A stretch of DNA of 64,000 nt from Amoebophrya sp. A120 (GCA_905178155.1 CAJINV010000019.1:914913-978912); one strand, 5' to 3'. Numbered from the stretch's first letter, positions 212 through 59,793 are shown. A program made the numbers and translations. The notes: a model not told the origin generated them from the sequence alone.

Positions 212-2314
212 TCACAATTCCTCCGCCTTTGCGTTCTTCTCGACTTCAAATTTTTCCGGCCACCCCCTCGGGCGGTAGTGGATGAAGACGTTGGCAAATT
301 CCCGGCCCGGGAAGGGTGTCGGCCGCCCGTGCGGTAGCGTTGCCGACTCGTACAGAATGATCTGCCCCGCCTTGTTGGGCACGTACTTCGTTTCCCCACT
401 GTGCGTCACCACCTGCATATGGAGTAAAAAAAGTTCGTCATCATAGTCACTGACTTGCAGTTTTTGCATGAGATTTTTTTATTTTTGCATCACAGGTTTT
501 TCGTGTATTGCTATTGCACAATTACAAGAGAAATCCCATGTAAAATTAGACTGTGATGCATTTTTACATATGACAGAAATCTTCGCATTGCCAAAACGCG
601 CATGAGTGATCGTGACGAATTTTTTTTGTTCGTCCATACTGCAACGGCCAGCTGTGGTCGTAGGTCTGCTCCATGCCGTGATACTGATCGTCCGGAAACC
701 CAAACTCCAGATGGCCCACCTCCACAATGGCGCTGATTGCGTGCGTGTCGCGCCGGTCGTATGAACTGCAAAAGTATCGTACTCGTACAAATGCATCAGC
801 ATTACAAGTTTCATCAGCGTGAGAAATAAAATTTGCAAATGCTGATTTACCTTGAAAAGAGAGATTTGCACTATATGCATGAATGCAATACGAGTGCGAT
901 GCTTTTGCACAGGATAGGTCGCCGTGCATCCGCATTTCGGAGTTTTGTCGGTACAGTCGGGTTATGAAATGCAAAAGCATCGTCCTCGTATAATTGCAAT
1001 CATGCATTACAAATCTTTTCCCTGAGGCTGCCGCTGAGGTACGTCAGCATTACATTTCTCATGCTGAGGAAATTTGTAATGCGTTTATACGAGTACGATA
1101 CTTTTGCACTGCATACGGATGCCGTACAACGCCGTCATCTCTAGTTCACTCGCCTCGAACCCCGTCCACTTTGCCACCACCGGCTGCATGACTGCCTGCA
1201 ACCTGTTCTTCAGGTCCTGGCGGAGCTCCACGAGCCACATGTCCGTTTTGCACGCCGGAATCGCCCCGTCGAGCCACCTGGTTTTCTCCGGTTTCGCGAG
1301 TTTGTTGCGGTTTTGCTGCCAAAACGCGCGGATGTCCCGCAACAACTCCGGGTCCGGGAAGTCTTGCACCTCGAAGCCCTCGGGCGTGAATTTCCGAAAT
1401 TCTTGCGTCTGCCTCCACATCTGCTGCATGTCCTCGTCGTGCGTTTTCTTCAATTCTTTCTCGTACTCCAAATTCAGCAGAATGTCGGTCAACGCGGTTC
1501 CGCCGGTGTGGTTGTAATAGGTACTGTGCTGCGAAATTGTATGGACAGAGGATGTTGTTGCAGCAACACTTCTACTAGCTCCTTCTATCGGCGAAGCAAA
1601 CGGGGCAATAAACCCTGGGGGCCAAATCGTGGTCAGGAACGGCGCTAGAGTAGACGACGCACTGGTGCCACTGTCGGCAGATGACAGGGAAATCGTTCCT
1701 GGATACTTGAATCTGCACCGGGTCGGGTTATAGTCTCGCGGGCTGTTCATTCGGTCGCAGAAGTGCGCGCGGTCGGCGTCGTCTTTTGCCAGCTGTCTCC
1801 GGCACTCGCGTCGCCAGTCTCCCACGGCTTTCTCCCATTTTTCCCCAGCGAAAAACTGCTCTTCCGTCGGCCGGTCCACCCAATCGACATCGCAATGGAT
1901 GGCGTTGTCGCTTTGATTCTCCAAGCCCTCGCTGGTTGCACTAGCTCCACCGTCGGCACAGGTACAGACCACGGCGCCGCTTTTCGCACCCTGCTTCACC
2001 GTGACGTGGAAAGTGTCCTTGATTTTTGTCGGCCGCTTCTCCTCCTCTTCCTTCCACCCATCATCTGTGCTTCTCGTTGTAACGCGAAAGATGTGCCCTT
2101 CAAAGGTGTCCTGGGAGGCAACGGCGCCGGGAAAAATCGTTTCGATCGGGACGGGCTTTTCCTTCGGGTAGTTCTCGGGAATGAAGAGGAGCTTGAGGGG
2201 GGAGCTTGCGCAGCTGTTCTTGAAGGTCAGCGGGTGGACGGGCTCGGCAGCGGAAGCGGGGCTGCACGATGTAGCAAGCAGTTGTAGAGTGGCCAGGAAG
2301 GTGGGGCCGCGCAT
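212..2314 (-). CDS. Secreted/ER 2OG-Fe(II) dioxygenase (prolyl-hydroxylase-like), copy A, ~518 aa, 3 introners
   Basis: N-terminal signal-peptide-like sequence (MRGPTFLATLQLLATSC). After removing 963-1115, 760-916 and 418-638 (each plus a 5-bp repeat) it reads LYGIRLYRQNSEMRMHGDRRDTHAISAIV...WPLQVV...ILYESATLPHGRP...FANVFIHYRP, giving an HxD...H facial triad. C-terminal AEEL resembles an ER-retention signal. Spliced length 1557 nt is divisible by 3. Confidence 0.8.
418..638. mobile_element. Introner (TIR TATGGA...TCCATA, DR CTGCA), copy-A specific
   Basis: Direct repeat ctgca at 413-417 and 639-643; imperfect ~25-bp TIR; empty site in copy B near 8930. Confidence 0.92.
760..916. mobile_element. 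Introner family F2 (TIR TGCAAAAGTATCGYACTCGTA), DR GGTCG
   Basis: DR at 755-759 and 917-921; inserted at the HGD codons; shared with copy B. Confidence 0.9.
963..1115. mobile_element. Introner family F2, DR CGGGT/CGGAT
   Basis: TIR tatgaaatgcaaaagcatcg / cgatacttttgcactgcata; splits YGIR|LY; shared with copy B. Confidence 0.9.
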
Positions 2315-4234: not shown

Positions 4235-7200
4235 TCAATGCTTAGCCGCAGGCTTCAGCCCTTTCGGACTACTCTCCCCGTCACTCCACCTTTCCCCGCT
4301 TTGCAACGTTTTCTCAAAGTCTGCCATCCTCCACGGTTTACTGCACTTGAAATCGTTGCGGACGGACCTTAATTGCCGGAAAATGTCCTCTTCCTTGGAC
4401 TCCCCTAACTTCTTCGAAAACTGCTGCACGCGGAGAAAGTATGGATGTGTCAGGTTTGAAATCAACAAAGTTGAAATGATTTCTCATGCATAAATTGCAA
4501 GGCATGAAGTGCCTCTTTTGCAGGGATGGCAAGTGAGGCCGATCTTCAGCCTGTTTGGGGTCTGCGATAGAGCTGCTGAAGTAGCATCACAAAAGACGCC
4601 TTCTTTCCCACCTAGACAGCATGACAAACTGGATTTAAGCGGTGCCAAAATTTGTCATGCGCCGCTTGGAAATTGGGCTTCCAACTGGTATCGATTTCAT
4701 GCATTACAAATTATATCAACTTTGACGATTTCAATCCTGACACTACCATAGAAAGGGCGACGTCAATAACTCCTCCTCCGCGGTAAAGGGTACTGTGGGG
4801 ATTTTGTCCTTGCGCAAGTCAACTATTTTCTTGCATCGGTCGATCACCGCTTGCCGGCTCTGGTCCGACTTCTCCACCAGCGCGAGGGCGAACTGACACC
4901 CGTCCGTGGCGTACTCGTGGGCGCAGTAGATCAGCGTGGATTTCGGAATATGGTCCATCAACCGCTGCTTCAGGGCCCTGCGGTATATTGTTTTTTGAGT
5001 ATTTTATGTCGCGTTTTCAATTTTTTGAAAGCTCCCCCGCTGGCAACCGGAACGCCAACTGCTGGCGTAGCAAGCCGACACAACACCACAATAAACCGCA
5101 ATTGCACAGACAATGTTGACCTCTAGCTAAGTGAGAATTATGATGTGGGAGATGTTGCCTAAATGTAGCAACAAGAAGTAAGAAGATGAACATCTGTGTA
5201 CAACGATACACGCAAATTAATAACCGTAGTAAAAAAAAGTACCTGTAGCAGTCCGCTGCGTCGCCCTCAAAGAGCCTGCCGCAGCCCATGGGAAAGACGA
5301 TGTCCCCGGTGAACACGATCCCGTAGGATTTCAAAAAGAACCCGATCTGCCCTAACGTATGCCCCGGAACGTGGATAATCTCGAAGTCCAGCGGCCCGAG
5401 GTTCAGGTGCTCCCCGTGCTTGCAGAGCTCGGAAAAGTCCGATTCCTCCGCGAACTTTTTCAAATTCGGCAGCTCGATCCGTGACGCGTACATGCGCGGC
5501 CGGTGGTTGTTATTCGCTTTGAAGTTGTCCGCCGCAATCTCGTTCCACGCGCCCAGGTGATCCCAGTGCCAGTGGGTGATCAGCACGTCCGTGATGACGG
5601 AGCCGAATTCCTCCTTTGCACGCTGGCAGTACTCCAGGCCGTGCCCCTGCGGCAAGTCGATGGCGATCACGCGCGCGGCCTGGCTGGTCTGGCTCACGCG
5701 ACGACTGTTGTTCCTTGGAGGGCTGCTGTTGTTGGTGGTGGTGGTGCCCGAAGTAGAAGTAGGTTCTAATTGCTCTGGAACGTACAACAAGTACCCGTAG
5801 TTGTCACTTAAACACGGGAACTGGATCAACTTCAGCGTCGGATGCGACTGTTCCTTGTCAAACTTCTCCGCAAACTTGTTCGCCTGAGTGTAATGCGGCC
5901 GCGGGGACCCCTTCGGCACAGATTTCAGTGGCTCGATGTCCACCCGCTGCACCTCCGACCACGTCTGCCGCCCGTTGGACTTGTCCAGAAGCTTCTTGTT
6001 TTCCGAAGACGGGCCGGGGAGAAGGTTTGATGATGAATTACCTGCAGTAGTTGCACTCGTCGACATCATGGCCGCGGCGGAGGGGCGAGCTTTCGGCGAA
6101 AAACCACCAGTAGTATTCGAAGGCTTGATACTAGCCGGCGAACCAGAGTTCGAGCGGGCGAGAGCGGATGTTGAACCTCCGCCGCCGGAATTCGTGCGAG
6201 TCAGTCGCGGCGACTTGGTGGTCGACGTCCCAGAAGCTTTTGCCTTATTCTTCCTTTCCTCCTCGTCCACCACCCCAGTCATCGCCACCGCGTGCGCGTG
6301 CACTCCGTGCGAAACAACCCCGTGCCCACTGCCCATCTTGGACTCCAAAATCGTCAATTGGACCACCAACCCGTCCGGATCCCGAACGCATCGCAACACC
6401 GGGTCGAAAGTGGGCGAAGTCGAGATCTTGCGGAACTGCGCGGGGGAGACGCCGATGGAAATGGATTCAAAAGCGGGCTTCTCCGGGGATAAGTCATCCG
6501 GCCCGGCGAGCACGGGTGCTGTTTTGTCCATATTCCGCATGTGCTGGATTTCCAGTGTCGTGACGGGTAACTGGTACAGCCACTCCCTTTGCGCTTGGAT
6601 TTTGCTCTCCATAGTACCGATCTTGCTAAAGTCTGGCACTTTTTGCTTCATCTCATCCGTCAAATACGCGAAGAAATACAGGTCGAAGTTGTACGGCGAA
6701 ACTTCCTGTTTCTCCAATAAAGTCATGCCCAGCACCTCGGTGTAAAACTTCACACACAAATTCGCATCTTTCGTCCGGGTGGTGACTTGCCCGATCACCG
6801 GGTCTAGCATGCGCGTCAACGGGTTCCGCGCACGAAGTCCGCTCGACTGCAGCTTCTCTTCCGCTCGCTCGATCCGTTTCTTTTTCGTGGCGGTGTTCCC
6901 TTCGAAACTCGTCTGAAGCAGCTCAATCGGAAATCCGACCGGATCCGCGATGTGCTCCAAGTATCCGACGTTCAAAAACTGTTCCGCCTTCGCGTTTTTC
7001 TTGCCCAAACCGGTCCTCAAACAGTCATCGACGTCGTCTACCGCCAGCCCGATCTTCCAGTACAGAGGCCGCTGGAAGTTCACTTGCTGCTGGCTACGAT
7101 CCTTAGTCTGGGCCACGACCTGCTTCCCGGGGGGCAAAAACCGGAAGTTGAGCTGCGCGGAATGGGGCGAGTTCCGGAAATACAGATTGTCGATCGTTTG

Positions 7201-7344
7201 GCCGTTCGGAAAGGTCGCCGTTGTCTGCGCGACCATACCCAGCGACTCACTGTAGAACTTTAATACCTCGTCGCGAAACTGCCCAGGTACGCGGTAGGTG
7301 GCGGCCAGGAGGCGGGACGAGGTCTGGTTCAAAGCTGATTCCAT
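4235..7344 (-). CDS. Glyoxalase I-like (tandem VOC) plus glyoxalase II (hydroxyacylglutathione hydrolase) fusion, copy A, ~842 aa
   Basis: One uninterrupted ORF links VOC motifs (KFYSESLGM, YWKIGLAVDD, DPVGFPIELLQ, FYTEVLGMTLL, TTLEIQH, DPDGLVVQL) to metallo-beta-lactamase/GloB motifs (THWHWDH, PGHTLG, FTGD, GCGRLFEG). CAHEY and PTVP..EE...PFLR follow after a GT-AG intron (4978-5242) and introner 4440-4750. Spliced length 2529 nt. Confidence 0.88.
4440..4750. mobile_element. Introner family F3, DR GAAAG, copy-A specific
   Basis: ~38-bp TIR; DR at 4435-4439 and 4751-4755; aligns end to end with 19831-20138; absent in copy B near 13300. Confidence 0.93.
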
Positions 7345-8704: not shown

Positions 8705-11068
8705 TCACAATTCCTCCGCCTTTGCGTTCTTCTCACCACCTCCAGGCCGCCGCGCACCGACTTCAAATTTTTCCGGCCACCCCTTCGGCCGGTAGTGGAT
8801 GAAGACGTTGGCAAATTCCCGGCCCGGAAACGGTGTCGGCCGCCCGTGCGGTAACGTTGCCGACTCGTACAGAATGATCTGCCCCGCCTTGTTGGGTACG
8901 TACTTCGTTTCCCCACTGTGCGTCACCACCTGCAACGGCCAGCTGTGGTCGTACGTTTCCTCCATGCCGTGATACTGATCGTCCGGAAACCCAAACTCCA
9001 GATGGCCCACCTCCACAATGGCGCTGATTGCGTGCGTGTCGCGCCGGTCGTATGAACTGCAAAAGTATCGCACTCGTACAAATGCATTAGCATTACAACT
9101 CAACTGGAACAACACACCACTGGAACGATAGAAGAAGTGTGTTCATGTTTTGTAATTACAAGTTTCATCAGCGTCGGAAATAAAATTTGCAAATGCTGAT
9201 TTACCTTGAAAAGAAAGATTTGTATATGCATGAATGCAATACGAGTGCGATGCTTTTGCACAGGATAGGTCGCCGTGCATCCGCATTTCGGAGTTTTGTC
9301 GGTACAGTCGGGTTATGAAATGCAAAAGCATCGTCCTCGTATTGCAATCATGCATTACAAATCTTTTCCCTGTGGCTGACGCTGAGGTACGTCAGCATTA
9401 CATTTCTCATGCTGAGGAAATTTGTAATGCATTTATACGAGTACGATACTTTTGCACTGCATACGGATGCCGTACAACGCCGTCATCTCTAGTTCACTCG
9501 CCTCGAACCCCGTCCACTTTGCCACCACCGGCTGCATATGCATTGCAAATATGCCTGGGTCCGGAAGACTGCGAGACTTCTCATGCTAGTTTGGCACGAC
9601 TCTGAACTCTGTATTGCGCAGGGCCATCGGATGTTTCTCATCATGCGGAATACGCAACACAGAGCCGCGAGGAAATCTGTCATGCTTGCCGGTGCATTAC
9701 AGTGTGGTTATTTTTAATCATTGACATGCATCACAAGTTTCCAGACCCAGCAAATTTAATTTGCACTTGATACTGCATCATCTTTTGCAGCCTGTCCTTC
9801 AGGTCCTGGCGGAGCTCCACGAGCCACATGTCCACAGAAAATTTCCCGCACACGTACAAATGCAGTCTCTGCATAACAAAACTTGCCTTCAGTCCTAGTC
9901 TAGCATGACAAGTTGGACACTGCAAGTTAACGAAATTTGTCATGCATTTTGTACATGTACGGGAAAAGGAAATTCACATTGCATACCACATGTCCGTTTT
10001 GCACGCCGGGATCGCCCCGTCGAGCCACCTGGTTTTCTCGGGTTTCGCGAGTTTGTTGCGGTTTTGCTGCCAAAACGCGCGGATGTCCTGCAACAATTCT
10101 GGGTCCGGGAAGTCTTGCACCTCGAAGCCCTCGGGCGTGAATTTCCGAAATTCTTGCGTCTGCCTCCACATCTGCTGGATGTCCTCGTCGTGTGTTTTCT
10201 TCAATTCTTTCTCGTACTCCAAATTCAGCAAAATATCGGTCAACGCGGTTCCGCCGGTGTGGTTGTAATAGGTACTGTGCTGCGAAATTGTATTGACAGA
10301 GGATGTTGTTGCAGCAGCACTTCTACTAGCTCCTTCTATCGGCGAAGGAGCAACCGGTGCACTAAACCCTGGGGGCCAAATCGTGGTCAGGAACGGCGCT
10401 AGAGTAGACGACGCACTGGTGCCACTGTCGGCAGATGACAGGGAAATCGTTCCTGGATACTTGAATCTGCACCGGGTCGGGTTATAATCACGCGGGCTGT
10501 TCATACGATCGCAGAAGTGCGCGCGGTCGGCGTCGTCTTTTGCAAGCTGTCTCCGGCACTCGCGTCGCCAGTCTCCCACGGCTTTCTCCCATTTTTCCCC
10601 AGCGAAAAACTGCTCTTCCGTCGGCCGGTCCACCCAATCGACATCGCAATGGATGGCGTTGTCGCTTTGATTCTCCACCTCCTCGATGGTTGTACTAGCT
10701 CCACCGCCGGCACAGGTACAGACCACGGCGCCGCTTTTCGCACCCTGCTTCACCGTGACGTGGAAAGTGTCCTTGATTTTTGTCGGCCGCTTCTCCTCCT
10801 CTTCCTTCCACCCATCATCTGTGCTTCTCGTTGTAACGCGAAAGATGTGCCCTTCAAAGGTGTCCTGGGAGGCAACGGCGCCGGGAAAAATCGTTTCGAT
10901 CGGGACGGGCTTTTCCTTCGGGTAGTTCTCGGGAACGAAGAAGAGCTTGAGGGGGGAGCTTGCGCAGCTGTTCTTGAAGGTCAGCGGGTGGACGGGCTCG
11001 GCAGCGGAAGCGGGGCTGCACGATGTAGCAAGCAGTTGTAGAGTGGCCAGGAAGGTGGGGCCGCGCAT
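8705..11068 (-). CDS. Secreted/ER 2OG-Fe(II) dioxygenase, copy B, ~527 aa, 4 introners
   Basis: Paralog of 212-2314. Frame restored by removing 9829-9985, 9537-9772, 9314-9463 and 9051-9267, each with one DR (1584 nt). Confidence 0.8.
9051..9267. mobile_element. Introner family F2 (ortholog of 760-916) with an extra ~60-bp internal insert
   Basis: DR ggtcg on both sides; same TIRs as 760-916. Confidence 0.9.
9314..9463. mobile_element. Introner family F2 (ortholog of 963-1115)
   Basis: Near-identical to 963-1115; DR cgggt/cggat. Confidence 0.9.
9537..9772. mobile_element. Introner family F1 (TIR TGCAAAWATGTCTGGGTCTGGAAG), DR CTGCA, copy-B specific
   Basis: DR at 9532-9536 and 9773-9777; empty site in copy A near 1185. 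Confidence 0.9.
9829..9985. mobile_element. Introner, DR CCACA, copy-B specific
   Basis: DR at 9824-9828 and 9986-9990; imperfect IR (tttcccgcacacgtacaaatgca / tgcattttgtacatgtacgggaaa); empty site in copy A near 1236. Confidence 0.85.
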
Positions 11069-13097: not shown

Positions 13098-16000
13098 TCA
13101 GTGCTTAGCCGTAGGCAGCTTCAGCCTTTTCGGACTACTCTCCCCGTCACTCCACCTTTCCCCGCTTTGCAACGTTTTTTCAAAGTCTGCCATCTTCCAC
13201 GGTTTACTGCACTTGAAATCGTTGCGGACGGACCTTAACTGCCGGAAAATTTCCTCTTCCTTGGACTCCCCTAACTTTTTCGAAAACTGCTGCACGCGGA
13301 GAAAAGGCGACGTCAATAACTCCTCCTCCTATGCAAGAAAAAAACTGTGTAAGTGTAAGTCTGTGATGCAGAAAATGCAAAATAGTTACACTTGTCATGC
13401 TGGACATGCATCAGAAGCTCTTTTCGTGCGTGTTTTCACGTACTAGCCGCGCATGACAGGCTCTCTCTGTCATGTGAAGCAAATTTGTGATGCTATTCCT
13501 CCAAGAAAGTTACACTAACACAGTTTTTTTCTTGGATACCTCCGCGGTGAAGGGGACTGTGGGGATTTTGTCCTTGCGCAAGTCCACGATTTTCTTGCAC
13601 CGGTCGATCACTGCTTGCCGGCTCTGGTCCGACTTCTCCACCAGCGCGAGAGCGAACTGACACCCGTCCGTGGCGTACTCGTGGGCACAATAGATCAGCG
13701 TGGATTTCGGAATATGGTCCATCAGCCGCTGCTTCAGGGCCCTGCGGTATATTGTTTCTATAAATATTTTCAATTTTTTGAAAGCTCCCCCGCCGGCAAC
13801 CGCAACGCTAACTGCTGGCGTAGCAAGCCGACACAACACCACAAACCGCAATTGCACAGAGGATGTTCTTGACCTCTAGCCAAGTGAGAATTATGATGTG
13901 GGAGATGTTGACTAAATGTAGCAACAAGAAGTAAGATGAACATCTGTGTACAACGATACACGCAAGTTCACCGCAGACGTAGTAAAAGTACCTGTAGCAG
14001 TCCGCTGCGTCGCCCTCAAAGAGCCTGCCGCAGCCCATCGGAAAGACGATGTCACCGGTGAACACGATCCCGTAGGATTTCAAAAAGAACCCGATCTGCC
14101 CTAACGTATGCCCCGGAACGTGGATAATCTCGAAGTCCAGCGGCCCGAGGTTCAAGTGTTCCCCGTGTATGACAGTGCACAACTCCCCCTCCCCCTCATT
14201 TGTATAGCATGACCGGCAATACAAGCATCAGCAAGAATGCCGGTTGCGCATGACAAATTAGCATATGGAGTGTAGTGCCATTTGGGCTGCCAGAACTTGT
14301 CATGCAAACAGTGCCAAGAGGCAAAAAAGGGTGGATTGGGTATTTTGCATGACAAATGAGGGGCTGGGGGGGGGTTGTGCACTGTCATACCGTGCTTGCA
14401 GAGCTCGGAGAAGTCCGACTCTTCCGCGAATTTTTTCAAATTCGGCAGCTCGATCCGCGACGCGTACATCCGCGGCCGGTGGTTATTGTTCGCTTTGAAG
14501 TTGTCCGCCGCAATCTCGTTCCACGCGCCCAGGTGATCCCAGTGCCAGTGGGTGATGAGCACGTCTGTGATGACGGAGCCAAATTCCTCCTTTGCGCGCT
14601 GGCAGTACTCCAGGCCGTGCCCCTGCGGCAAGTCGATGGCGATCACGCGCGCGGCCTGGCTGGTCTGGCTCAAGCGGCGACTATTTGGGCTGTTGATGGT
14701 GCTGCCCGAAGTAGGTTCTTGCTCTGGAACATACAACAAGTACCCGTAGTTGTCACTTAGACACGGGAACTGGATCAACTTCAGCGTCGGATGCGACAGC
14801 TCCTTATCGAATTTCTCCGCAAACTTGTTCGCCTGAGTGTAATGCGGCCGCGGCGACCCCTTCGGCACAGATTTCAGCGGCTCGATGTCCACCCGCTGCA
14901 CTTCCGACCACGTCTGCCGCCCGTTGGACTTGTCCAGAAGCTTTTTGTTTTCCGAAGACGGGCCGGGGATAAGGTTTGATGATGAGTTACCTGCAGTTGC
15001 ACTCGTCGACATCATGGCCGCCGCGGCGGAGGGGCGAACTTTCGGCGAAAAACCACTAGTAGTATTCGAAGGCTTGATAGAAGCCGGCGAACCAGAGTTC
15101 GAGCGGGCGAGAGCAGATGAACCCCCGCCGCCGGAATTCGTGCGCGTCAGTCGGGGCGGCTTGGTGGTGGTCCCTCCAGCAGCTTTTGCCTTATTCTTCC
15201 TTTCCTCCTCGTCCACCTCCATCGTAGTCATCGCCACCGCGTGCGCGTGCACCCCGTGCGAAACAACCCCGTGCCCACTGCCCATCTTGGACTCCAGAAT
15301 TGTCAATTGCACCACCAAGCCGTCCGGATCCCGAACGCAGCGCAACACCGGGTCGAACGTGGGCGAAGTCGAGATCTTGCGAAACTGCGCGGGGGAGACG
15401 CCGATGGAGATGGATTCAAAAGCGGGCTTCTCCGGGCTCAAATCATCCGGGCCGGCGAGCACGGGTGCGTTTCGGTCCATATTCCGCATGTGCTGGATTT
15501 CCAACGTTGTAACGGGTAACTGGTACAACCACTCTCTTTGCGCTTGGATTTTGCTCTCCATAGTACCAATTTTGCTAAAGTCCGGAACTTTTTGCTTCAT
15601 TTCCTCCGTCAAATAGGCAAAGAAATACAGGTCGAAGTTGTACGGCGAAACTTCCTGTTTCTCCAATAAGGTCATGCCCAGCACCTCCGTGTAAAACTTC
15701 ACACACAAATTCGCATCTTTCGTCCGGGTGGTGACTTGCCCGATCACCGGGTCCAGCATGCGCGTTAACGGGTTCCGCGCACGAAGTCCGCTCGACTGCA
15801 GCTTCTCTTCCGCTTTCTCGATCCGTTTCTTTTTCGTGGCAGTGTTCCCTTCGAAACTCGTTTGGAGTAGCTCAATCGGAAAGCCGACCGGATCCGCGAT
15901 GTGCTCCAAGTAGCCGACGTTCAAAAACTGCTCGCCCTTCGCGTTTTTCTTGCCCAAACCGATTATTGTTTGCAAAAACGTCCCCACGACCCCACACTTG

Positions 16001-16581
16001 TCATGCAAAGTGGCATGCCTAAAATGTTTCTCATGCGCAGACACAGTAAAGCCATTTTCTAATGCTATCTGGAAGTTTGTGATGCTGGAATCACGCAAAG
16101 GTAGTCGATTTGTGATGCGTCGCCACTGCCTCAAACAGCACTACACTACGAGTCCAAATTTGTCATGCAAAACAGCCAAAGCCTCTAGGTTTGTGTTGCG
16201 AAATCCCCATCTTGACTCTGGGATGGGGACGCTTTTACTCAGGATACCGGTCCTCAAACAGTCATCGACGTCGTCTACCGCCAGCCCGATCTTCCAGTAC
16301 AGGGGCCGCTGGAAGTTCACTTGCTGCTGGCTACGATCCTTATTCTGGGCGACGACCTGCTTCCCGGGGGGCAAAAACCGGAAGTTGAGCTGCGCGGAAT
16401 GGGGCGAGTTCCGGAAATACAGATTGTCGATCGTTTGGCCGTTCGGAAAGGTCGCCGTTGTCTTCGCGACCATACCGAGCGACTCACTGTAGAACTTTAA
16501 AACCTCGTCGCGAAACTGCCCAGGCACGCGGTAGGTGGCGGCCAGGAGGCGGGACGAGGTCTGGTTCAAAGCTGATTCCAT
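13098..16581 (-). CDS. Glyoxalase I-like plus glyoxalase II fusion, copy B, ~834 aa
   Basis: Paralog of 4235-7344; shares the GT-AG intron (13742-13991) and has three copy-specific introners; spliced length 2505 nt. Confidence 0.88.
13330..13538. mobile_element. Introner family F4, DR CCTCC, copy-B specific
   Basis: TIR tatgcaagaaaaaaactgtgtaagtgtaa; reverse-complement homolog of 39394-39618; empty site near 4775. Confidence 0.92.
14168..14389. mobile_element. Introner family F5, DR CCGTG, copy-B specific
   Basis: Near-perfect TIR tatgacagtgcacaac; reverse-complement homolog of 35009-35224; empty site near 5415. Confidence 0.93.
15964..16246. mobile_element. Introner family F6 (TIR AAAAACGTCCCCA), DR CCGAT/CCGGT, copy-B specific
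   Basis: Empty site ccggt in copy A near 7010; similar to 24529-24813 and 37916-38201. Confidence 0.9.
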
Positions 16582-40500: not shown

Positions 40501-42720
40501 GTCTCACGTCGATGGGGTAGGAGCAGGTGCGAGACCCGATCTCGAACTGTCGCTGCGAAGCCACGGAGGGCGAAACATCGTCGGGAGACACGAAGTAGCT
40601 GGTGTTGGGAGAGCAACAAGTAGTTTTCCGTGCTTTTCTTGTAGTGTAGTGCTATGTATCCTCTACGCATGCCAACATAATTTTGAAAAATGTTATTCTT
40701 CGTCCAGTTCAAATCATGTGTCAAAAGTGGTAAAGAGAAGACTGCACGTTAGCTGCAGCACTACTGATTTATCAGCAAAAAAAACTGTAAGCAATATCCG
40801 ATGTAGTTGACTTTCAGTACCCTTCCCCGGTCCGCTTGACCCTCCCCGCACTGCCGCTGTCCCCGCCGGCATTTTCGCAAATCGACTCCTCTTCCTCTTC
40901 TTCGCGGACCGGTGGTAATCTCCCTTCTTCCACGAAATTTCGATTTACCAGCACCACGCACTGCTCCTCCACCTCCTTCAACGACTCCAGCGCCTCCTCC
41001 CAGCTGGCCACCAAAACCAGTGTGAAGATGGCTTGCCTTATCAAAGTGAAAAAAGCCCCCACCCCATATCGGAAACGGAAGATGCGCGAATTTGTGATGC
41101 TGTATTTGAGTACACAAATGGACTTGTATTGCTAGAAGGCCAAGACCAAGAGACGAAGCTGCGGCCTAAATTGTAGGTAATCTGTCATGCTGTTTCCCAC
41201 TTCCAGCTGCCTCCTGTCATCCTCGAGCTGCAAGGCTTTCCCACGCTAGACAGCACTACAGTCCGCATCTTTTGCCTTCTAGCATCATAAAGCTGATTTG
41301 TGACCACAAATCTGCATCACAGATTTATTCCGTTTTGATATGGGGAGGGGGCATTTTTCATTGTAATATGCCTCGCGTTTTGGACAATCCCGCGGACACG
41401 CAACGCGAGCAATTGGTCCTCGGTTTGGAGGTTGGTCGTGTTGTCCTGCTGCAGTTGGTCTCCTGCTCCTCCAGCTGCTCCGGGGGACGGAGTGGTCGCT
41501 GCTCGCATATCAAATGCAAAAATGTTTGGGTCTGGAAGAGTCATGCCGTTTTTGCATGACGCAGAAGGTCTCGCATGGAAGCGCTAGCATCACAGGTTTC
41601 GAGACGCTTCCGCAATGCCGAATCCGCATGACAGATCCCCCATTTTGGTGACAGAAAGTGGGCAGCTGTTGCCCACTATGCATGAGAGATATTTCTGCGT
41701 TCTGAAATGCGCATCACAAATTTGTATTCTTCCAGACCCAGACATATTTGCAATCGATATCGCACGGACGGGAGCAACAGCTGTCGCACGTTCTCGGGCG
41801 TGTTCACGATGCGGAGCTTCAGCAGAAAAACCGCAGGCGGGGGGCGGACCTGATTTTCTATAAGGATCATTTTTGGGTATTCGTTCTTCTCGTTCTTTCA
41901 TCCGGAATAGAAAATCGAAACGCAAATTTCAACTTACGTACGTATGTATGCTAACACGACAGCGCATCCTATCTTTTTTTTTTTCGTTTCCCGGAGTGGC
42001 AGGGGGACGAATGTGTTTGTGTTGGTGTAGTTACGGTTGCCTGCTCGTGCTATTGGTGTTTTTGCTATAACAAGGCTAAGCTTTTCTGCAACAAGATTGA
42101 TATACACAACCTGCATGTTGACAACCAACAAAAACCTCGTCCTGTGCTGTCAAGAAATATACCCTCTCCCCGTTCCTGTGCAGCATGGGCAGATTTAGCA
42201 GCCCTTCGCTTGTGAGCATCGCATTCCCCACCCCGCTCATCGAGGGGAGCAGTTGCATCTGCAAATGCACCACCAGCCCGCTGTTATCGTCTAGGCAGAC
42301 CGCATTTTCGTAGAAACCGTTTTTCGAGATCTGCGCGTCCTGCGAGGGATCCAGCAGTTCGCGCATTGACAGCGTCAGCAGTGTCGTCGTCGATTCTAGC
42401 GTGTCCGGCGACATCCCGGTAGCGGACGTTTGGTTGACGGGGGGCAAAATCTGCTTGAGAAACAGCTCCTGCACGGACCACAGGTGGTCGCAGACCTCGG
42501 GAAGCGTGCCCGGGATGCACATCAGGTAGCTGGTATTGGTGGAGGTTGATGGTTGTGTCGTGCTCGAACTGCTGGAGCTGCTGGTTGTAGTACTTGTGGA
42601 GGAACTTTGCTTGTCCAGCTGCAACAGAAATTTCCGGACCTGCCAATTCAGGGTTAGCACTGAAAGGTCGGAAACCACCTCCAGGCCCTCCAGCCGAAGC
42701 CGGAGAAGCACGGAAGACAT
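34509..42720 (-). CDS. CEP120: CEP120-like centriolar protein (C2 domain plus coiled coil), ~1423 aa, 8 introners and 5 GT-AG introns
   Basis: C2-type segment WRLSIELR...KYFYPF...FRTNPP...LPHGFAAY...EVWQRD...LG, then VFLEDLG, YSAAYELELWK and C-terminal RDELLESGLYAPDD, resembling CEP120 from memory. Canonical introns at 41850-42135, 40599-40820, 37378-37572, 36181-36386 and 35617-35828. Spliced length 4272 nt. Confidence 0.78.
35009..35224. mobile_element. Introner family F5, DR CAGTG/CAGCG
   Basis: Opposite orientation to 14168-14389; junction STL|QVP in frame. Confidence 0.9.
36932..37094. mobile_element. Introner family F2, DR GGAAG
   Basis: TIR tgcaaaagta.cg.act; junction VSS|MDG in frame. 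Confidence 0.9.
37916..38201. mobile_element. Introner family F6, degenerate DR GCAGT/GAAAT
   Basis: TIR tatcct..gtaaaaacgtcc; removal restores frame. Confidence 0.88.
38260..39305. mobile_element. Introner family F2 (~145 bp) expanded by a nested insertion, DR CATTG
   Basis: F2 TIRs at both ends; DR at 38255-38259 and 39306-39310; the two halves match the 963-1115 element. Confidence 0.88.
38299..39195. mobile_element. 897-bp nested GC-rich element, TG...CA ends, 4-bp TSD CATG (solo LTR or TIR element)
   Basis: Interrupts caatCATGcattacaa of the host introner; ends are tgaaccagta and tgctgcttca. Confidence 0.75.
39394..39618. mobile_element. Introner family F4, DR CACCC/CCCCC
   Basis: Reverse-complement homolog of 13330-13538. 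Confidence 0.9.
40010..40270. mobile_element. Introner family F1, DR ATTTC
   Basis: Reverse-complement homolog of 58663-58928; junction RGN|NGN in frame. Confidence 0.92.
41039..41368. mobile_element. Introner family F7 (TIR GAAAAATGCCCCC.CCCCATATC), DR TGCCT
   Basis: Opposite orientation to 48928-49248; junction ARQ|AIF in frame. Confidence 0.9.
41508..41759. mobile_element. Introner family F1, DR TCGCA
   Basis: F1 TIRs; junction SVR|AAT in frame. Confidence 0.9.
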
Positions 42721-48894: not shown

Positions 48895-49451
48895 CTAATA
48901 CCCCATCTGGCGCAGCAGCACTTCCGTTATTAAGAGGAAACATCCCCCCTCCCCATATCGAAAAGGTATGTCTCCGGAAATTTGTGTTGCTGATTTGCGA
49001 CCTCAAATCACGTCTGTCCTGCAAGAAGGCATCTCCACAAGCTCCGCAGCATTGTGCAGGCGATTTGTGATGCTGATGGGCCTACAGCACGGACGTTTCT
49101 CATGCTAGACGCCTAGGCCAGAGCCTCTCTACTTAGGCTTAGTATGGGGCTGCATTCCTCTCCAGCAAGACAAATCTTATTTGTGTACGCAAATCCTGCA
49201 TCAGAAACTTCGTTTTGATATCGGGAGGGGGGATTTTTCCTTTTGTTATCCGTGTAGGTCGACCCTCCCGCGCAAGCCGCCGCCGTACTACTCACTTTCT
49301 CCTTGGTGCCATCGCGTAAAAACCGCTGCGAATCGAAGAAGAGCTCCGGCTTCTTCTGATACCGCCAGTACGAGTCTCGGACCTTGGTCACGGCGGGCTG
49401 TGTTGAAGAATTATTGTGAAGATTTTCTCTTCTTGCTTCTCTGGTCAACAT
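48895..49451 (-). CDS. Small hypothetical protein or terminal exons (~76 aa), revealed by an introner
   Basis: Removing 48928-49248 plus one DR gives MLTREARR...GSTYTEVLLRQMGY-stop. Confidence 0.5.
48928..49248. mobile_element. Introner family F7, DR TCCGT
   Basis: DR at 48923-48927 and 49249-49253; TIR ggaaa.atcccccctccc.atatc. Confidence 0.88.
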
Positions 49452-51080: not shown

Positions 51081-51120
51081 GAGTCACTGCTACAATGCCC
51101 TGTCTTAACAAAAGAACCTA

Positions 51121-52392
51121 GCTGTTTTTATTTTTAGTGCTGTTCGCTAAAATCAAAAATCTGTGTTGCATGATTACCAAAAGTCGTCCAGTTTTGACCA
51201 AGTCGCGAGGGAGTTTCTGACGCAGGATAGGCATGAGAGAGATCGCACAGAATCTGTCATGCTAGGTCCTGCATTCCAGACCTCATGGGTCATGGAAAAG
51301 CTGCATGACAAGTCGCGCATTCTTCCAGACCCAGACATTTTTGCATTGGATAGCGATCAGTGCGTCCGCCGGCCACTCCGTGTACCAGTCGATCACGCAG
51401 CAGTTCACCAAGCTGGGAAACTGGCGCAGCCGCGCCCGCCAGGAGTCCCCGATGGGCGAGAAGCAAAGCACGACCTTCATCAGGGTGCGGACCCGCGAGA
51501 TGAAGTAGGCGTACAGCTCCGCCGGCGCGCCGGACAGGCATTTTCCCTCCTGTTTCGCGGCGGGGCGGACCAGCTCGCACAGGTTCATGCGCTCGTCGGC
51601 CGCGAACAGGTTGGGCACCTCGCCGGAGTTCAGCAGGTTGTTGATATCCTCCACGAAACCCTCGTCTTTGATCTGCGAGTCCGTGAACAGGAACACCGTG
51701 GAATCGCCCTTTCCGCCAGCGTTCGTCAGGAGTTTTTTGATGTCCTCCCGGAACGCAATGATGTCGTAGCCCTTTGCGATCTCGATCTGGAAGATGGTGT
51801 AATCCGCCAGGAAGGACGCCAACTTCGTGCACGACTGGCGCCCGGAACCCCCCACACCCACCAGAAGCGCGTTGCCACCGGGTGTCCGAACCACCCGCGC
51901 AACCCGCGACAAGTGCTCCAGCATGTACAAGAAGCATACCTGGACAAGTATCAAGTTTTCACAGTACGTCCTGTCCAGTTGTTTGCAAAGTCATACGACC
52001 TCCATGTCCTCGATCCTATGCAATACAAATTTTTGCCTATTCCAGAAATCACATGACAAGTTCCAACTCTTCCAGACCCAGACATTTTTGCATTTGATGC
52101 CATGATCTGCTGCGCAATCACGGAGAGAGCCTCGACGTCGATTATCAAAAGGAAAAATCTCCCCTCCCCATATTGACAAGGCACGTTTTCGAAAATTTGC
52201 GCTGCTGATTTGTGACCACAAATCGTCTCTGTGTTGCATGAAGGCAACCCCACAGGCTCCGCCGCATTCTAGAGCCGGTGTCCCATGCTGTTGTTCCTAC
52301 AGTGTAGACTTCTGTCACGCTAAGCGCCTAGGCCAAAACCTGTCTACTCAGGCTGTTTTCATTTTTAGTGCTGTTCGCTAAAATCAAAATCT
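51121..52392. repeat. ~42-bp direct repeats (51121-51162, 52352-52392) flanking a ~1.19-kb displaced fragment
   Basis: gctgtttt(t/c)atttttagtgctgttcgctaaaatcaaaa(a)tct occurs at both ends. Confidence 0.85.
51353..52142 (-). pseudogene. Dynein heavy-chain fragments: AAA4 exon 51353-51939 and an AAA1-derived mini-exon 52100-52142
   Basis: LEHLSRVARV...GNALLVGVGGSGRQS...EDINNLLNSGEVPNLF...RQFPSLVNCCVIDWY and IDVEALSVIAQQI are axonemal dynein motifs. Flanked by truncated introners (~51154-51352, ~52016-52099, 52143-52354). No other dynein exons nearby. Confidence 0.88.
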
Positions 52393-54473: not shown

Positions 54474-56622
54474 CTACCTCTTTGTCCTCCACCTTTCTTT
54501 GACACTATCCGTTGAGAATTTAAATGCCCTTTTCCATATCACACGGCTAAACGCTTCACTTTTAAAAACTTCACTTGCTAAAAAAAATCTTTTTTTAGTG
54601 AGGTTTGGCGCTGTTGCTTACAGCATCAGCAGCTACGTGCCGACGACGGCATTGCGGCGCGTGCACCTTCTGCATCAGTGGAAGGACGACTGGGCCTTGC
54701 TTTGGGGGGTAGAGGTTGGCAGTTGACTAGTGAAGACGCCACGGCTTATAATTCTGAGAGCGAAACTCCCGAAGAGTCTTCATTTGAGTAAGATGAAAGC
54801 AAAGCGGAGACTTTTGTGTGCGAAAAAGTGAAAAAGTCGATGACTTGACAAAAAAATGAATCGCTTGTGGGTTTTTTGAGCGTAGCACCGGCCGAAGAAT
54901 CAGCAAAAATCCAGAAACTGGCTCCGGTGACAAACGATTCACTTTGGCCATATTTGGCCGCCGCAGCATCGGCGCAAGCTTCCAAAAACGAGCACTTTTG
55001 AAAATCATCGAAATGGTGCATCAAAGCGATGCTTTTGTGACAAGTGCTATGTTTTTGAGGCGTTTTGGGTTGGACTCAGCTCGTGGCTGACAAGCGATTC
55101 ACCTCACAAAGTTGGCCAGTTTTGGTGGCCCGAAAGTGGCTCTGTTTTTGAGGCCTTTTGGGTTGGAGCATAGGCGTGGCTGACAAACGATTCACCTCCT
55201 CGAAACAGCTGCTTTGCTTTCAGAGATCCAAAAAATCCCCCAAAGAAAATTTTTTTTAAGGAGTGAAGTTTTTAAGCGTGAAGCGTTTAGCCTTGTGATA
55301 TTCCAACAGTCGTGTTCTTCATTATCCGGCCAGGGGCGCTCCTCGCCGTGCCGCGCCTTTGCATAACAACCACACTCGGCAAGAGCCAAGCGGTGGAAAA
55401 CAAGCGTGTTATGCATTGTAGCTATGTCTGGGTCTGGAAGAATGCAGCCTGTCATGCAAACTCTCGATCACATAAAAATTCGTGTTGCATGAACGCCAGT
55501 AGTTGCCCTTGCTAGGGAAAAGCTAATTTCTCATTCTCATTCGGAATTGGCATGAGGATTGTCTTGCAAACTCTGTCATGCTTCTCTGTGCAACGCAGTT
55601 GCAGACACAGACCATGACCATGTGCGTGGTCCGCCGCGAGATGCAAAACAAATTTTGCACTCTTCAAGACCCAGACATATTTGGAATGCATACGTGTACA
55701 GGAACATCGAGTCTGTTGCTACTGGCTCCGCGCCTACTTCCTGTCGACGGCGATTCGCCAGTACCGCATCCCAGGCCTCGAGGTTCTGGTCGAATGCATG
55801 AGCGCGGTCGAACATAGACACGACGTTTTTCAGCTTCGTGGTCACCTCCCATTCTCCGAGGTCCTGATTGAAGCTTCTGGCAGTGGCAAACATATATTCC
55901 ATGTTTTCTACCTCGCTCACGCGCCACGAGCGAATCGAACGGTCGTTGAAGTCACGGCAGCCGAAAAACATCCAGTCCATCCTTTGCACCGTACTCGTGT
56001 CCCAGTATAGCGGCTGATTAAAGCCCTGGCCGCAGTCCGCAAAAGCAGCGCTCATGTCTCTGATACCCCTGGTATTCCAACGCGAAATCCGAAAAGACGG
56101 GACATACATCTGACTCCACCGAAGCGACTTGTATTCATCATAGTGGCAAAACTCTGGAAGCTTGTCAAGCCCGCCAACGTCCCACTGCTCCACCGGGCCG
56201 TATCTTGCCTCGGCGGCGTTCCGAAGATCCTCGTAATTTTGCTCGCTTTGATTCCCGTCTGGAGCTCTGATAGTTCTAGCTTCGTCAGTCCACCAAAGCT
56301 GCATAGCCTCCTCGAGTTCCTGCAGAGACCGGAAAGCGCGGAAAACTTGCTGCCTCCTGTGGCCTAGGCTCTTTTCTGCTTCCTGCAGTGCTGCCCGAGT
56401 TCCCTTCGAGACCCGGGCGAGTCTCCCGTAGTCCCGTTCGGTGCGGAGGAAGCCTTGGAAACGATTGTTAAGCACTTCTTGCACTACTGGATCATCTCTT
56501 CCAAGAAAAATAGCGCGGCCCCGTTGATCTCGATTGTTGTCAGGTTCAACCCTGGCAGCGACGACCATTGTGGTCGCCACAGCAAAGACTGTGAAGATGT
56601 TGAAGCTCAAACTACGCATCAT
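54474..56622 (-). CDS. Secreted DUF285 (BspA-family-like) repeat protein, ~363 aa, 2 introners
   Basis: Signal-peptide-like N-terminus; repeats ISRWNTRGIRDMSAAF, FNQPLYWDTSTVQRMDWMF and FNQDLGEWEV...VVSMF; spliced length 1092 nt. Confidence 0.82.
54537..55300. mobile_element. Long (764 bp) introner-type element, ~60-bp TIRs, DR TTCCA
   Basis: Ends tatcacacggctaaacgcttcac and gtgaagcgtttagccttgtgata; DR at 54532-54536 and 55301-55305; internal ~56-bp repeats at ~55050 and ~55143. Confidence 0.88.
55410..55692. mobile_element. Introner family F1, DR CGTGT
   Basis: F1 TIRs; junction FLYT|LVF in frame. Confidence 0.9.
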
Positions 56623-57447
56623 GTTCGTGGTAAAGGCAATGCTAACAAGAACTCGAACAAGTTAAACTTAAAGTTAATGTTTGTACACGCCGTACTGGTA
56701 AAAGATAACGTAAGATTCCAAAACTTTTAGGCCTGCAACTTTGATTCACTCATGCATCGTCGATGAGTTACGCCACTCGGAGCTGCAACTTTAGGTGTAA
56801 ATGTATGCTTAGAACAAGGATGTCAAGAACTAATGATCAACTTTGATCGTGATATGATGGTGATCCTTGACATATTTCGCATGATCGTGGTATTTCATAT
56901 GATCGTGATTGACGATGATCCTATGATGATTTAGATTTCCTCACTCGATCGAACCACTGTGCAAAAAGGAGATAAGTCCTTTCAGAGCTCGACTCTTCAT
57001 GATCAAGTGGATCGTATATTCTTGCGCTCCTCTTTAAAAACAGATCCAGGCTGTATTCTTTTTGAAAGTGAGTACATGCACCGACATCATTACAGAAGCA
57101 GGCGTCGTGTCTCTCTTGTTGCACTTCGCACAAAATGGGTAAAACTAAACAAATGAAAGAGGTTCTCGCATGGACTTTTCACAAACACCGGTGAAGACAG
57201 CAGTACAGACGAAGGATCAATAGAACACCAGAACTACACACAGAACGAAAGCGACTACGACGTGGATGAACGAGGTACGAAGTACTTATCACGATGACAT
57301 TGCAATTCTTTCTCATCCCAAGAAGAAAACTGTTTCTTCAGTCACAAACTTTGCAACTTTTCGAAATTTCAGCACAAAAATTCGATTTCAAGACGAAGAC
57401 GAAACAACATCGTATAAAAAACAAGCAGTGACCACCTTCGGCCTTTT

Positions 57448-59793
57448 TCAGGAGTGCCCAGCCTTGCTCGCACCTCTACTTTCGTCCTCTTTCTCTCTAC
57501 CCACATTTTTAGCATTTCCACCGCTCCAAACCAGCCACGCCCTCAACCCCAGGCAAAACAGCGAGAACACGGATGCGATTCCGTTCACGATTCCTGCGAC
57601 GTAGAGACTCGGACCGGACTGGATCCCGTGGTAGAACCACAAGCCGCAGACGAATAGCCCGGCGCAGTTTTGCGACACCGACCCCATGAACAGCGGATTT
57701 TTCTCCTGCCACGCACGGTAGGAATACCGAACCGGCGCGCCCATCATGGTCAGGAAGGTGCAAACGCCGAGGGTGGAAAACAGAATTTTTACCTCGTCAA
57801 TCATCACGGTTTCCTCGCCATTCCGCTCTTTCGCCGACAGGCTGCTCCCGGAGAGATCGCTGTCAGAAGAAGAAGAAGAGCTAGTTGTACTTCCACCCTG
57901 GTCCTCCTCGCCGTTGCCTCCCCCGTCAAAAAGACAAGTGAACACGTATTACAATGAAAAATGCCCCCACCCCACACTTGGCAGCATTTGTATTGCAAAC
58001 CTTTCCAATAGAAACGCTTCCCGTCTTGCATATCTCAGGATCACAAATTTTCCATGCTGAATAGCGCGAATTTGTGTTGCGGAGGGGCCCAACAGCATCC
58101 GGATCTGTTATGCACAAGGCACCTTGCGCACCTAGATTCTGCATCAGAAAAGCTCGCAATCCTTTCATGCAAGACAAAAAGCTTTCATTTGGAAACTTTG
58201 CATGACAACCTTTTGCAAATTCGGGGGTGGGGGCACTTTTCACTGTAATAACACGTCCGGGCGGTCGTGAAAAACCGTGAGGAGGAAGCATCAAATGCAA
58301 AAGTGTCTGGATCTGGGAGAATGCAAGATCTGTCATGCATATTTCTCATGACCCATGATTGTCTGTGATGTATGCCCTACCATCACAGATTTTTAGAACC
58401 CTTCCTGATGCACCTTCCGCATGAGAAATGCCCTGTCCGTGCAGCACAAATTGTACCCCTCTTGCTGGTCATGCAACACAATTTTTTTTCGAGTCCAGAA
58501 ACAGCATGACAAGGAAGTTACCACCTTCCAGACCCAGACATATTTGCAATGCATAGAAAGACCAGCGTGACGAAACACAGATATAGAATCAAAAACAGCA
58601 ACAATCGCTTCAACTCTTTCTCATACAAGTCCCGCCGGTAGTATTTGCAGTAGAGAAACAGCTATCAAATGTAAAAGTGTCTGGGTCTGGAAGAATGCAA
58701 CTTGTCATGCTAAATCTGAAGCATGCAAAAATCTGTGTTGCATGACTACCAAAAGCCGTCCAGTTTTGACCAAGTCGGGAGGAAGTTTCTCATGCAGGAT
58801 AGGCATGAGAGAGATCGCACAGAATCTGTCATGCTATGAATGTCCTGCATTCCAGACCTCATGGGTCATGGAAAAGCTGCATGACAAATCGCGCACTCTT
58901 CCGGACCCAGACATTTTTACATTTGATAACAGCCACAAAAACCCGGTGGAAATCTGCAGGCAGCCCTGGGGCACGCCGGTGCGGAAGCCCTGGAGCAGAA
59001 AAAAACTGGTCCACGTCCAGCCATTCGCGCACTGCGCGACAAATTGGAGCGGGGGGGTTTCCAGTTGGTCCTCGAGGTGATCATCAAGATCTCCTTCGTT
59101 TTTGCAGTTTTTCAGATCGGGCTGGGGAGCCGCAGCAGTTGACTTAGACTTCTGTACCACTTCGCCGGCTTCTTGTCGTTGTTTTGTCCCTTGCGAAGCT
59201 GCAACAAACGCTGTGGTCGCGGCCGCATTATAGTCGTGCTCCTGAGCAGTGTCGACATTCATATTACCGTCAGGTGGCTCGACGGCGATAGCAACATGAT
59301 CTTCATTTTCTCTCGTTAAACTCGGATCTTTGTCACGAGAGCTTAAATCTGCTGGAAGAACATCCTCTTCATCTAGTGTCGGAACCACTTCTTCATCTGC
59401 GTCTGTCTCTACTTCCAGCAACACATCCGGTACCCCCGGGCGCGAAGAGGCAGCAGTGCCCCCGGTCGTGCTTGCGGAAGAAAGGTTTTCCGCTGAGATG
59501 ACCAGAGAAGCGGTGCAGGGCTTCATACTCATGGAGCAGGTCTCTGATGTTAAATACAGATTTTTAACGACTTCTGTGCTGCCTTCTGCGTGAAGATCCG
59601 TTTTATTCGTTTGTGCAGGTGCATTCTTTGGATGTTCATCCAGGAGCGCAGCGGCCTTGGCTTTATTCGCTTCTTCCTCTTCCCGCTTTCTCGTGCGTTT
59701 CCTGACGGAGAGACGATAAAAGACCTCCCCCGGACCACCGAACAGGAAGATGGGAAGCGTGATAACCAGAATGTCGTAGGTTAGCTGAGCCAT
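57448..59793 (-). CDS. SWEET/MtN3-type sugar transporter-like membrane protein, ~497 aa, 3 introners
   Basis: Two MtN3-like halves (LFGGP..F.R...PLQF..Q.ANGWTW and MMGAPV..SY.AW..KN...M...CGLWFYHG...VNGI) with about seven hydrophobic segments; spliced length 1494 nt; alternative start 59862. Confidence 0.7.
57947..58250. mobile_element. Introner family F7-like, DR ACACG
   Basis: TIR tattaca.tgaaaa.tgcccccacccc. Confidence 0.9.
58289..58555. mobile_element. Introner family F1, DR GGAAG/GAAAG
   Basis: F1 TIRs (one end CAT rather than TAT); frame restored. Confidence 0.88.
58663..58928. mobile_element. Introner family F1, DR ACAGC
   Basis: TIR tatcaaatgtaaaa.tgtctgggtc.ggaag; junction LWL|FLY in frame. 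Confidence 0.92.

Follow-up and report, generated by a model that had tools for sequence, protein, structure and literature searches.

How can transposon-like elements that reside within coding exons be precisely removed from transcripts when they lack the GT-AG ends of ordinary introns? This question is raised by a stretch of 64,000 nucleotides (nt) from Amoebophrya sp. A120 (GCA_905178155.1 CAJINV010000019.1:914913-978912; referred to here as the window), which contains 36 complete elements with TAT...ATA ends, each possessing terminal inverted repeats and a 5-bp target-site duplication (TSD); coding exons host 34 of them. The original prediction for this DNA envisioned about 35 such elements, whose precise excision would need no GT-AG ends and would be carried out by a second, end-symmetry-guided system. 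While the number, the anatomy and the precise loss of the elements were borne out, their removal is polar and not end-symmetric: three terminal bases are invariant, and their identity is set by the direction of transcription.

The window was scanned for repeat-TAT...ATA-repeat arrangements with inverted ends, and motif-free and relaxed scans together with a homology sweep brought the count to 35; the 36th element (30080-30973) was added later, and the homology sweep also found three truncated pieces. The strict scan detects 23 elements in the window, compared with 0-1 in each of 20 shuffled windows. The terminal trinucleotide is a variant in four of the 36 elements (9829, 30080, 48928, 58289), and one or two mismatches are present in the direct repeats of 11. 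All 33 elements that were folded are predicted to pair end to end over at least 10 bp, with TAT paired to ATA in 25, and two fold tests gave z-scores of -5.3 and -2.4. A wider set comprises 141 loci carrying the same families; these were retrieved by a pattern scan from one other assembly (unknown strain) and do not overlap the window. A perfect 5-bp repeat flanks 25 of the 36 window elements and 182 of the 233 locus elements, the ends of the latter having been defined independently of the repeat; 22 locus elements have a repeat of length 2, and at most five each one of length 3, 4 or 6-9. Little target preference is seen at the locus insertion sites. Thirteen families take in 157 of 183 elements.

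The exons of the window are 100% identical to the deposited Amoebophrya sp. A120 proteins P0001, P0004 and P0005. Because of this host assignment and the published introner description, the elements are the introner elements of Farhat et al. 2021 (PMC7789003), a class already known, as had been stated at the outset. In the available text of that report, the inverted repeats of A120 introners begin with TAT, followed by seven variable bases and then As; the introners are about 240-260 nt long, are bordered by direct repeats of 3-5 nt at the exon boundary, and their removal is backed by RNA sequencing. Non-canonical introns amount to 65% in A120, splice sites are described as variable relative to the hairpin, and splice position and mechanism were left open. 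Nearly all spliceosomal proteins and the U2, U4, U5 and U6 small nuclear RNAs (snRNAs) were reported for A120, with U1 undetected, whereas both GT-AG introns and U1 are present in a third strain, Kv. A further source, likewise as far as its available text goes, assigns A120 introners to several transposon types (PMC12130899). The arrangement of TAT, seven variable bases and at least three As is evident in our terminal logo, with the families of 4440, 19831, 23567 and 30080 lacking the A block. While the elements themselves are the same as those of Farhat et al., our account differs in its uniform 5-bp duplication, its fixed register, its three polar bases, and in viewing motif diversity largely as slide ambiguity. 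With inverted repeats, a fixed-length duplication, empty sites and insertion in either orientation, the elements have the properties of miniature inverted-repeat transposable elements (MITEs), i.e. non-autonomous inverted-repeat DNA transposons.

Precise loss of the element plus one repeat copy is documented by the deposited P0001 protein (1414 amino acids), from which all eight elements of the 34.5-42.7 kb gene have been removed exactly; five ordinary GT-AG introns coexist with them, as had been foreseen for the host genes, all of which lie on the minus strand. Such deletions had been said to restore in-frame lengths in nine gene models. Longest stop-free frames grow in six stretches (416 to 525, 371 to 534, 662 to 803, 464 to 1857, 857 to 1086 and 354 to 532 amino acids; the gain from 464 to 1857 belongs to the stretch at 17.8-25.9 kb), but there is no gain in 4100-7400, 55300-56700 (361 vs. 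358) and 48800-49500, and a GT-AG intron guessed within 4100-7400 was wrong. After removal, 32 of 35 window junctions are stop-free over 150 nt on each side; the 41508 junction has one stop, adjoining a GT-AG intron, and 48928 and 54537 have no clear coding exon. Sliding the junction within the repeat yields GT-AG in one of 35 window elements, the very one that had been predicted (13330-13538), and in 10 of 152 locus elements, and the elements do not conform to the canonical U2-type GT/GC...AG pattern. GC-AG, thought to be attainable only at 41039-41368, is also possible at 19831-20138.

The first 17 kb of the window (1-17600) represent a tandem duplication of two genes, one a glyoxalase/metallo-beta-lactamase fusion and the other presumably 2-oxoglutarate-Fe(II) oxygenase-like, judged by motif, the tested pieces having no Pfam match. 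Seven elements are found in one tandem copy and missing from the other, and two insertions are shared. At the empty paralog sites of seven elements the repeat is present once (six exact, one with one difference), as expected for a target-site duplication.

A 5461-nt contig of run X3, a run that we guess to be RNA, runs directly from 35003 into 35225, so that element 35009-35224 and five bases are gone; the X3 contig pieces also fit the loss of two GT-AG introns. Three further X3 piece ends coincide with element borders (a start at 18849, ends at 19825 and 36926). DNA-type contigs of single-copy depth (41-45) run from exons into the elements, and one spans all of 21413-21636. These data, which bear on the distinction between RNA splicing and DNA excision that the original prediction had called for, support the conclusion that the elements leave RNA and not bulk DNA, rare or stage-specific DNA forms being invisible in contigs.

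Codon-model orientation of the locus elements was consistent in 33 of 33 multi-element loci. Relative to transcription, the families are evenly oriented (31:31, 15:12, 7:9, 8:7, 8:5; 533 pairs same, 571 opposite), and hence either element end can serve as the 5' end. Polarity was counted in 251 oriented elements with the terminal trinucleotide left free and pattern-fixed ends excluded. Among 180 5' ends, variants number 0, 0 and 5 at T1, A2 and T3; among 196 3' ends, read as the reverse complement, they number 5, 5 and 0, the first A of ATA thus never being changed. The three invariant sites have 0 variants in 556, the free sites 15 in 572 (Fisher p = 3e-4). The pattern was noted in a first pass, and a second scan added five cases, each in agreement with it. 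Both ends show private changes of 2-4% per site over positions 4-60, without a polar block. The hairpin partners of the invariant bases are exactly those that vary, in a non-compensatory fashion; the constraint therefore acts on single-stranded sequence and not on pairing, and end symmetry in its strict sense is unsupported, although the unit may yet be delimited by the hairpin. Free sites carry T>C as well as A>G changes on the sense strand, which argues against strand-biased mutation. The tolerated 5' variants are TAC and TAA, with a purine before all six. A strong conservation of both TAT ends was considered and dropped, as pooling the ends gives a weak deficit (13 vs. 15-22 expected, one mis-shifted call included) and the signal is positional. 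Rows left out comprise L054:1143 and other shifted or cross-element calls, L102 (weak orientation, would fit), L089 (a 1-nt insertion, T1-A2 intact), L007 (unoriented, other type) and 48928 (unclear context, would fit); none of these variant rows contradicts the polar pattern. Recognition is very probably polar at the RNA level.

Where exactly within the duplication do the cuts fall? The messenger RNA (mRNA) retains the upstream copy of the repeat, and mismatches between the copies bound the register, i.e. the number of upstream bases kept. At 39394, three or fewer would place an in-frame TGA into the conserved 1414-amino-acid protein, and therefore the register is at least four; at 37916 the deposited Phe, aligned with Tyr in a relative, requires at least four, and at L031 a register of at least four retains the Gly of what we take to be an EF-hand-like motif. 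Bounds of at least two come from the X3 contig at 35009, the paralog at 15964 and P0004 at 21413. At 30080 the deposited P0005 Ala requires at most four (a downstream base at position 5). Deposited residues serve as indirect RNA evidence since transcript alignments underlie the gene models. No mismatched-repeat case contradicts four, and a junction 4 nt into the TSD (a 4+1 register) is, judged from these sequence comparisons, likely. The intron would then be N/TA...A-(6 nt)/, i.e. N-T-A...A-x-x-N1-N2-N3-N4, with invariant +2U, +3A and -7A. Single mismatches are spread over repeat positions 1-5 (9, 6, 5, 10 and 6 in 233 locus elements), and a mid-repeat cut with mismatches clustered at positions 2 and 4 was rejected on this ground and by the stop at 39394. 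Synonymous repeat mismatches (13 of 29 vs. 30% at random) fit one exonic and one intronic copy, nothing more. A codon-phase bias of 71/47/34 was discarded as evidence, as 64/49/38 is expected (p = 0.53) from a strand-symmetric target profile that was itself fitted to these data.

Aligners such as BLAT presumably slide junctions toward GT..AG. When such a slide to the best GT..AG was simulated within random 5-bp repeats, eight of the nine predominant A120 motifs of Table S4 of Farhat et al. were among the top 11 (r = 0.75, 13 values), which suggests that the published A120 motif diversity is mostly alignment ambiguity on one structure; the NT- motifs of that table, which the simulation reproduces, were consequently dropped as register evidence. 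No published statement of the polar rule or of the 4+1 register was found in the literature searched, though the logo figures of Farhat et al. may hold part of it.

The signals at the invariant bases look spliceosomal, and an adapted spliceosome has been proposed for Fritillaria and Amoebophrya in the available text of PMC11282704. We lean, at slightly better than an even chance, toward polar removal of non-autonomous inverted-repeat transposons by the parasite's own spliceosome, with relaxed terminal bases and a hairpin-closed substrate. The 5' cut would fall at N/TA, four bases into the upstream repeat copy, at a GUA-like donor whose first base is free; the branch would form at the invariant A seven bases before the 3' junction, a candidate branch point; and the 3' junction would be set by distance, not by AG. 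One base of the upstream copy and four of the downstream copy would be lost, exactly one duplication. The hairpin would define the unit, a role suggested by the reported failure to detect U1 in A120, and, taking over from U1-led bridging, would bring the A up to the 5' splice site; with the ends paired, the -7 A would face intron +4, not far from the 5' cut. TAT would be kept at both ends because T1-A2 act as +2U/+3A when 5', and T3 supplies the A when 3'. If the register is 4+1, the invariant T, A and A fall at the U2-type +2U, +3A and branch-A places. The canonical donors of the P0001 gene begin GTAT (three), GTAC and GTAA, and the TAC and TAA variants of the elements match them. In strain A25, introns begin with TT and their repeats with TTA in the available text of PMC7789003, which would also give +2T and +3A. 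The more far-reaching proposition, that the A120 spliceosome has come to do without G+1 and the 3' AG in tens of thousands of introns, with the hairpin replacing U1-led bridging, a U+2/A+3 donor, a branch A at -7 and a 1+4 ruler, is held more tentatively, at just under an even chance.

Several points weigh against this interpretation. G at intron +1 is not enriched (47 vs. 46-49 expected, 157 sites), nor is AG at the 3' junction significantly so (17 vs. 10.8-12.9, 157 sites), and A occupies -7 in only two of the five canonical introns of the P0001 gene. Three bases alone cannot specify an intron, yet the stem at positions 4-60 shows no base-level constraint. The upper bound of four derives from one deposited protein and an atypical element, 30080, whose repeat offers an AG. 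Among 15 elements with at least two repeat mismatches, +3/+6 suits L049 and L124:68 better than +5 does; for L018:212, perhaps a mis-paired call, the fit is to +4/+7, and several are ambiguous. It should also be noted that the site partition was chosen post hoc, that the variant list was hand-curated, and that most elements stem from the second assembly and were oriented by the codon model. Two raw RNA runs (X9, X10) have no coverage of these exons, and one junction was seen directly joined.

The same three bases might instead be read by a second, non-spliceosomal RNA system that measures from the hairpin, either Euglena-like or composed of an endonuclease and a ligase; this amounts to the original prediction supplemented by polarity. 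The end-to-end pairing of all 33 folded elements, the lack of a G+1 or AG preference and the failure to find U1 in A120 (PMC7789003) speak for it, as do the Euglena nonconventional introns, which in the available texts rely on a stem whose spacers, N3 and N5-6, are unequal (PMC12501133) and leave as circles (PMC11282704). However, pairing of the invariant bases is not preserved, their places under the 4+1 register are the spliceosomal positions +2U, +3A and a near-terminal A, and the tolerated 5' variants match the canonical donors of the same gene; we regard such a system as unlikely, though it is the main rival. Less probable still is the same polar machinery at another register, with the first T of the element as the intron start (TA at +1/+2, A at -8) or with a mix of 4 and 5. 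Splice sites are variable relative to the hairpin according to Farhat et al. (PMC7789003), every lower-bound case permits 5, and a single case sets the upper bound; that case, P0005, nevertheless has the downstream base at position 5. Precise DNA excision at some life stage, akin to that of the internal eliminated sequences (IESs) of ciliates, is very improbable. The inverted repeats, the duplication and the clean empty paralog sites do resemble IES anatomy, and assembled contigs lose rare forms (1045 joints lie beyond those listed), but the single-copy DNA contigs retain the elements, and the constraint tracks the direction of transcription, an outcome not expected if a DNA excisase worked on symmetric ends. 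Finally, the use of nearby cryptic GT-AG sites or a symmetric NT...AN cut leaving three extra bases can hardly be credited, since, even though the +3 product is stop-free in 134 of 137 cases, equal to precise removal, and published A120 motifs resemble NT-AN (PMC7789003, available text), both are contradicted at the sites tested by the exact skip without extra letters at 35009, by orthologs without an extra residue at 41039 and 36932 (the A25 protein being one residue shorter at 36932), by the stop that +3 creates at 39394 and by an NT-AN list that sliding in random 5-bp repeats reproduces.

Several known systems can be compared with the A120 elements, here as far as the available texts of the sources go. 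The nonconventional introns of euglenids (PMC12501133, PMC11282704) are likewise abundant, non-GT-AG, closed by an inverted-repeat stem with unequal spacers, provided with repeat-like junctions and located beside GT-AG introns; however, the Euglena CAG/CTG motif is complementary, whereas the invariant bases of A120 are not kept as pairs, and both motif and lineage are different. The euglenid signature N3CDG...CH'GN5-6/R is not found in the A120 elements, whose ends are TAT/ATA and which show no purine preference after the junction. U12-type donors have the sequence RTATCCTT with fixed +4T, +5C and +6C. In the A120 elements +4 varies, and +5/+6 are C/G and A/C/G; minor snRNAs are also reported absent in A120 (PMC7789003). 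The noncanonical introns of Fritillaria borealis (PMC11282704) are MITE-derived, carry inverted repeats and a duplication and are attributed to an adapted U2 spliceosome, but they prefer AG-AC/AG-AT ends, while the A120 elements have no terminal dinucleotide preference. The introners of Micromonas and Aureococcus (PMC11282704) are non-autonomous inverted-repeat transposons spliced at insertion via the duplication; they require GT/GC and AG, one of them co-opted from the target, and the A120 elements need neither. The tiny introns of Stentor (PMC9505925) share a conserved GUA start and a branch A nearly fixed near the 3' end (10th of 15 nt), but are canonical GU-AG introns of 15-16 nt without repeats.

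Additional observations concern the elements and their surroundings (Table 1). The motif GCAT(G/C/T)ACA, complement included, is present in about three copies per element in unrelated families, with peaks 30-49 nt from each end, and may constitute a transposase-binding motif; as a branch site it was rejected, since the complement has an equal peak at the 5' end and no polar constraint is seen at positions 31-45. Of the long members, 38260-39305 has the ends of a 150-bp family around an unrelated core, and 54537-55300 lies outside any clear coding exon. Element 30080-30973 has a GC-rich core and, because its depth in the DNA run is 127-194 vs. about 45, probably exists in several near-identical copies, which offer a lead to recently active or autonomous relatives. 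Three open reading frames (ORFs) inside long elements gave no Pfam matches, and no element matches were found in viral or prokaryote contigs. Intact ends without a matching repeat are present at L027:974-1302 and L054:2398-2680, where removal of the element plus 5 is in frame, and at L049:560-826 and L124:68-330, where it is out of frame. In run X9, 72-78 raw RNA reads at 21714-21745 and 22662-22687 contain half an element flanked by other sequence, and so represent an element remnant that a transcript from another locus or strain has retained. Gene models of the whole window are nearly all on the minus strand, like the unidirectional clusters reported for the genus. In the region 51086-52394, a dynein heavy-chain AAA D4 fragment (51358-51936, minus strand, PF12780) is bracketed by truncated elements and also flanked by a direct repeat of about 40 bp at about 51120 and 52352; this region may be a scrambled pseudogene piece, a captured fragment or an assembly junction. 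A stretch of about 50 bp is repeated 1.3 kb apart (60720-60770 and 62000-62050), and the DNA that follows (62200-64000) is GC-rich, the one ORF checked there having no Pfam match.

Table 1. Elements and associated features of the window, with the direct repeats that border each element.
Feature	Position	Strand	Remarks
Element	418..638		repeat CTGCA; lacking in paralog (empty site 8930)
Element	760..916		repeat GGTCG; insertion shared with 9051-9267
Element	963..1115		repeats CGGGT/CGGAT, difference at transcript position 2
Element	4440..4750		repeat GAAAG; lacking in paralog
Element	9051..9267		repeat GGTCG
Element	9314..9463		repeats CGGGT/CGGAT; insertion shared with 963-1115
Element	9537..9772		repeat CTGCA; lacking in paralog
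Element	9829..9985		repeat CCACA; transcript-3' end is ACA variant; lacking in paralog
Element	13330..13538		repeat CCTCC; GT-AG at 4+1 register; lacking in paralog
Element	14168..14389		repeat CCGTG; lacking in paralog
Element	15964..16246		repeats CCGAT/CCGGT; empty paralog has transcript-upstream copy
Element	18669..18848		repeat CTTGT; X3 contig piece begins 18849
Element	19831..20138		repeat TGGCC; X3 contig piece stops 19825
Element	21413..21636		repeats TCGAG/TTGTG; at least 2 nt of upstream copy in deposited protein (P0004)
Element	21714..21977		repeats GTTTC/GCTTC (synonymous)
Element	22601..22870		repeats CTCGT/CTCGC (synonymous)
Element	22919..23193		repeat CGCGA
Element	23567..23806		repeat GCAGC
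Element	24114..24379		repeat TCGTC
Element	24529..24813		repeat ATCTC
Element	29127..29338		repeat TCGAT; host is flavin adenine dinucleotide (FAD)-binding monooxygenase-like gene
Element, 894 bp	30080..30973		45-nt inverted repeat; transcript repeats CTAGT/CTAGC; 3' end is ACA variant
Element	35009..35224		repeats CAGTG/CAGCG; X3 contig skips 35004-35224, upstream base at transcript position 2
Element	36932..37094		repeat GGAAG; X3 contig piece stops 36926
Element	37916..38201		repeats GCAGT/GAAAT; deposited Phe opposite Tyr in relative
Element, 1046 bp	38260..39305		repeat CATTG; two internal ORFs without Pfam match
Element	39394..39618		transcript repeats GGGGG/GGGTG; in-frame TGA if at most 3 nt of upstream copy kept
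Element	40010..40270		repeat ATTTC
Element	41039..41368		repeat TGCCT; both orthologs gapless over junction
Element	41508..41759		repeat TCGCA
Element	48928..49248		repeat TCCGT; right end is TAA variant; no clear coding context
Element, 764 bp	54537..55300		59-nt inverted repeat; repeat TTCCA; not in clear coding exon
Element	55410..55692		repeat CGTGT; host is DUF285 gene
Element	57947..58250		repeat ACACG
Element	58289..58555		repeats GGAAG/GAAAG; transcript-3' end is ATG variant
Element	58663..58928		repeat ACAGC
Host gene of A120 protein P0001, 1414 amino acids	34512..42720	-	8 elements and 5 GT-AG introns
GT-AG introns of P0001 gene	35617-35828, 36181-36386, 37378-37572, 40599-40820, 41850-42162	-	donors GTATAG, GTAAAA, GTATAG, GTACTG, GTATAT
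Truncated element pieces	51154-51352, 52018-52099, 52143-52354		around dynein AAA fragment (region 51154..52354)

For the mechanism that Farhat et al. left open, the polar three-base rule and the 4+1 register provide predictions at the level of single nucleotides for the 5' cut, the branch A and the 3' cut. Should removal be spliceosomal, GU-AG termini would be droppable on a genome-wide scale, and the insertion of transposons into exons without limits of sequence or orientation would be explained. If this is true, the palindromic TAT end would be a splicing code that can be read in two ways, by which an insertion into an exon does no harm, whichever way it is oriented and whatever the target sequence.

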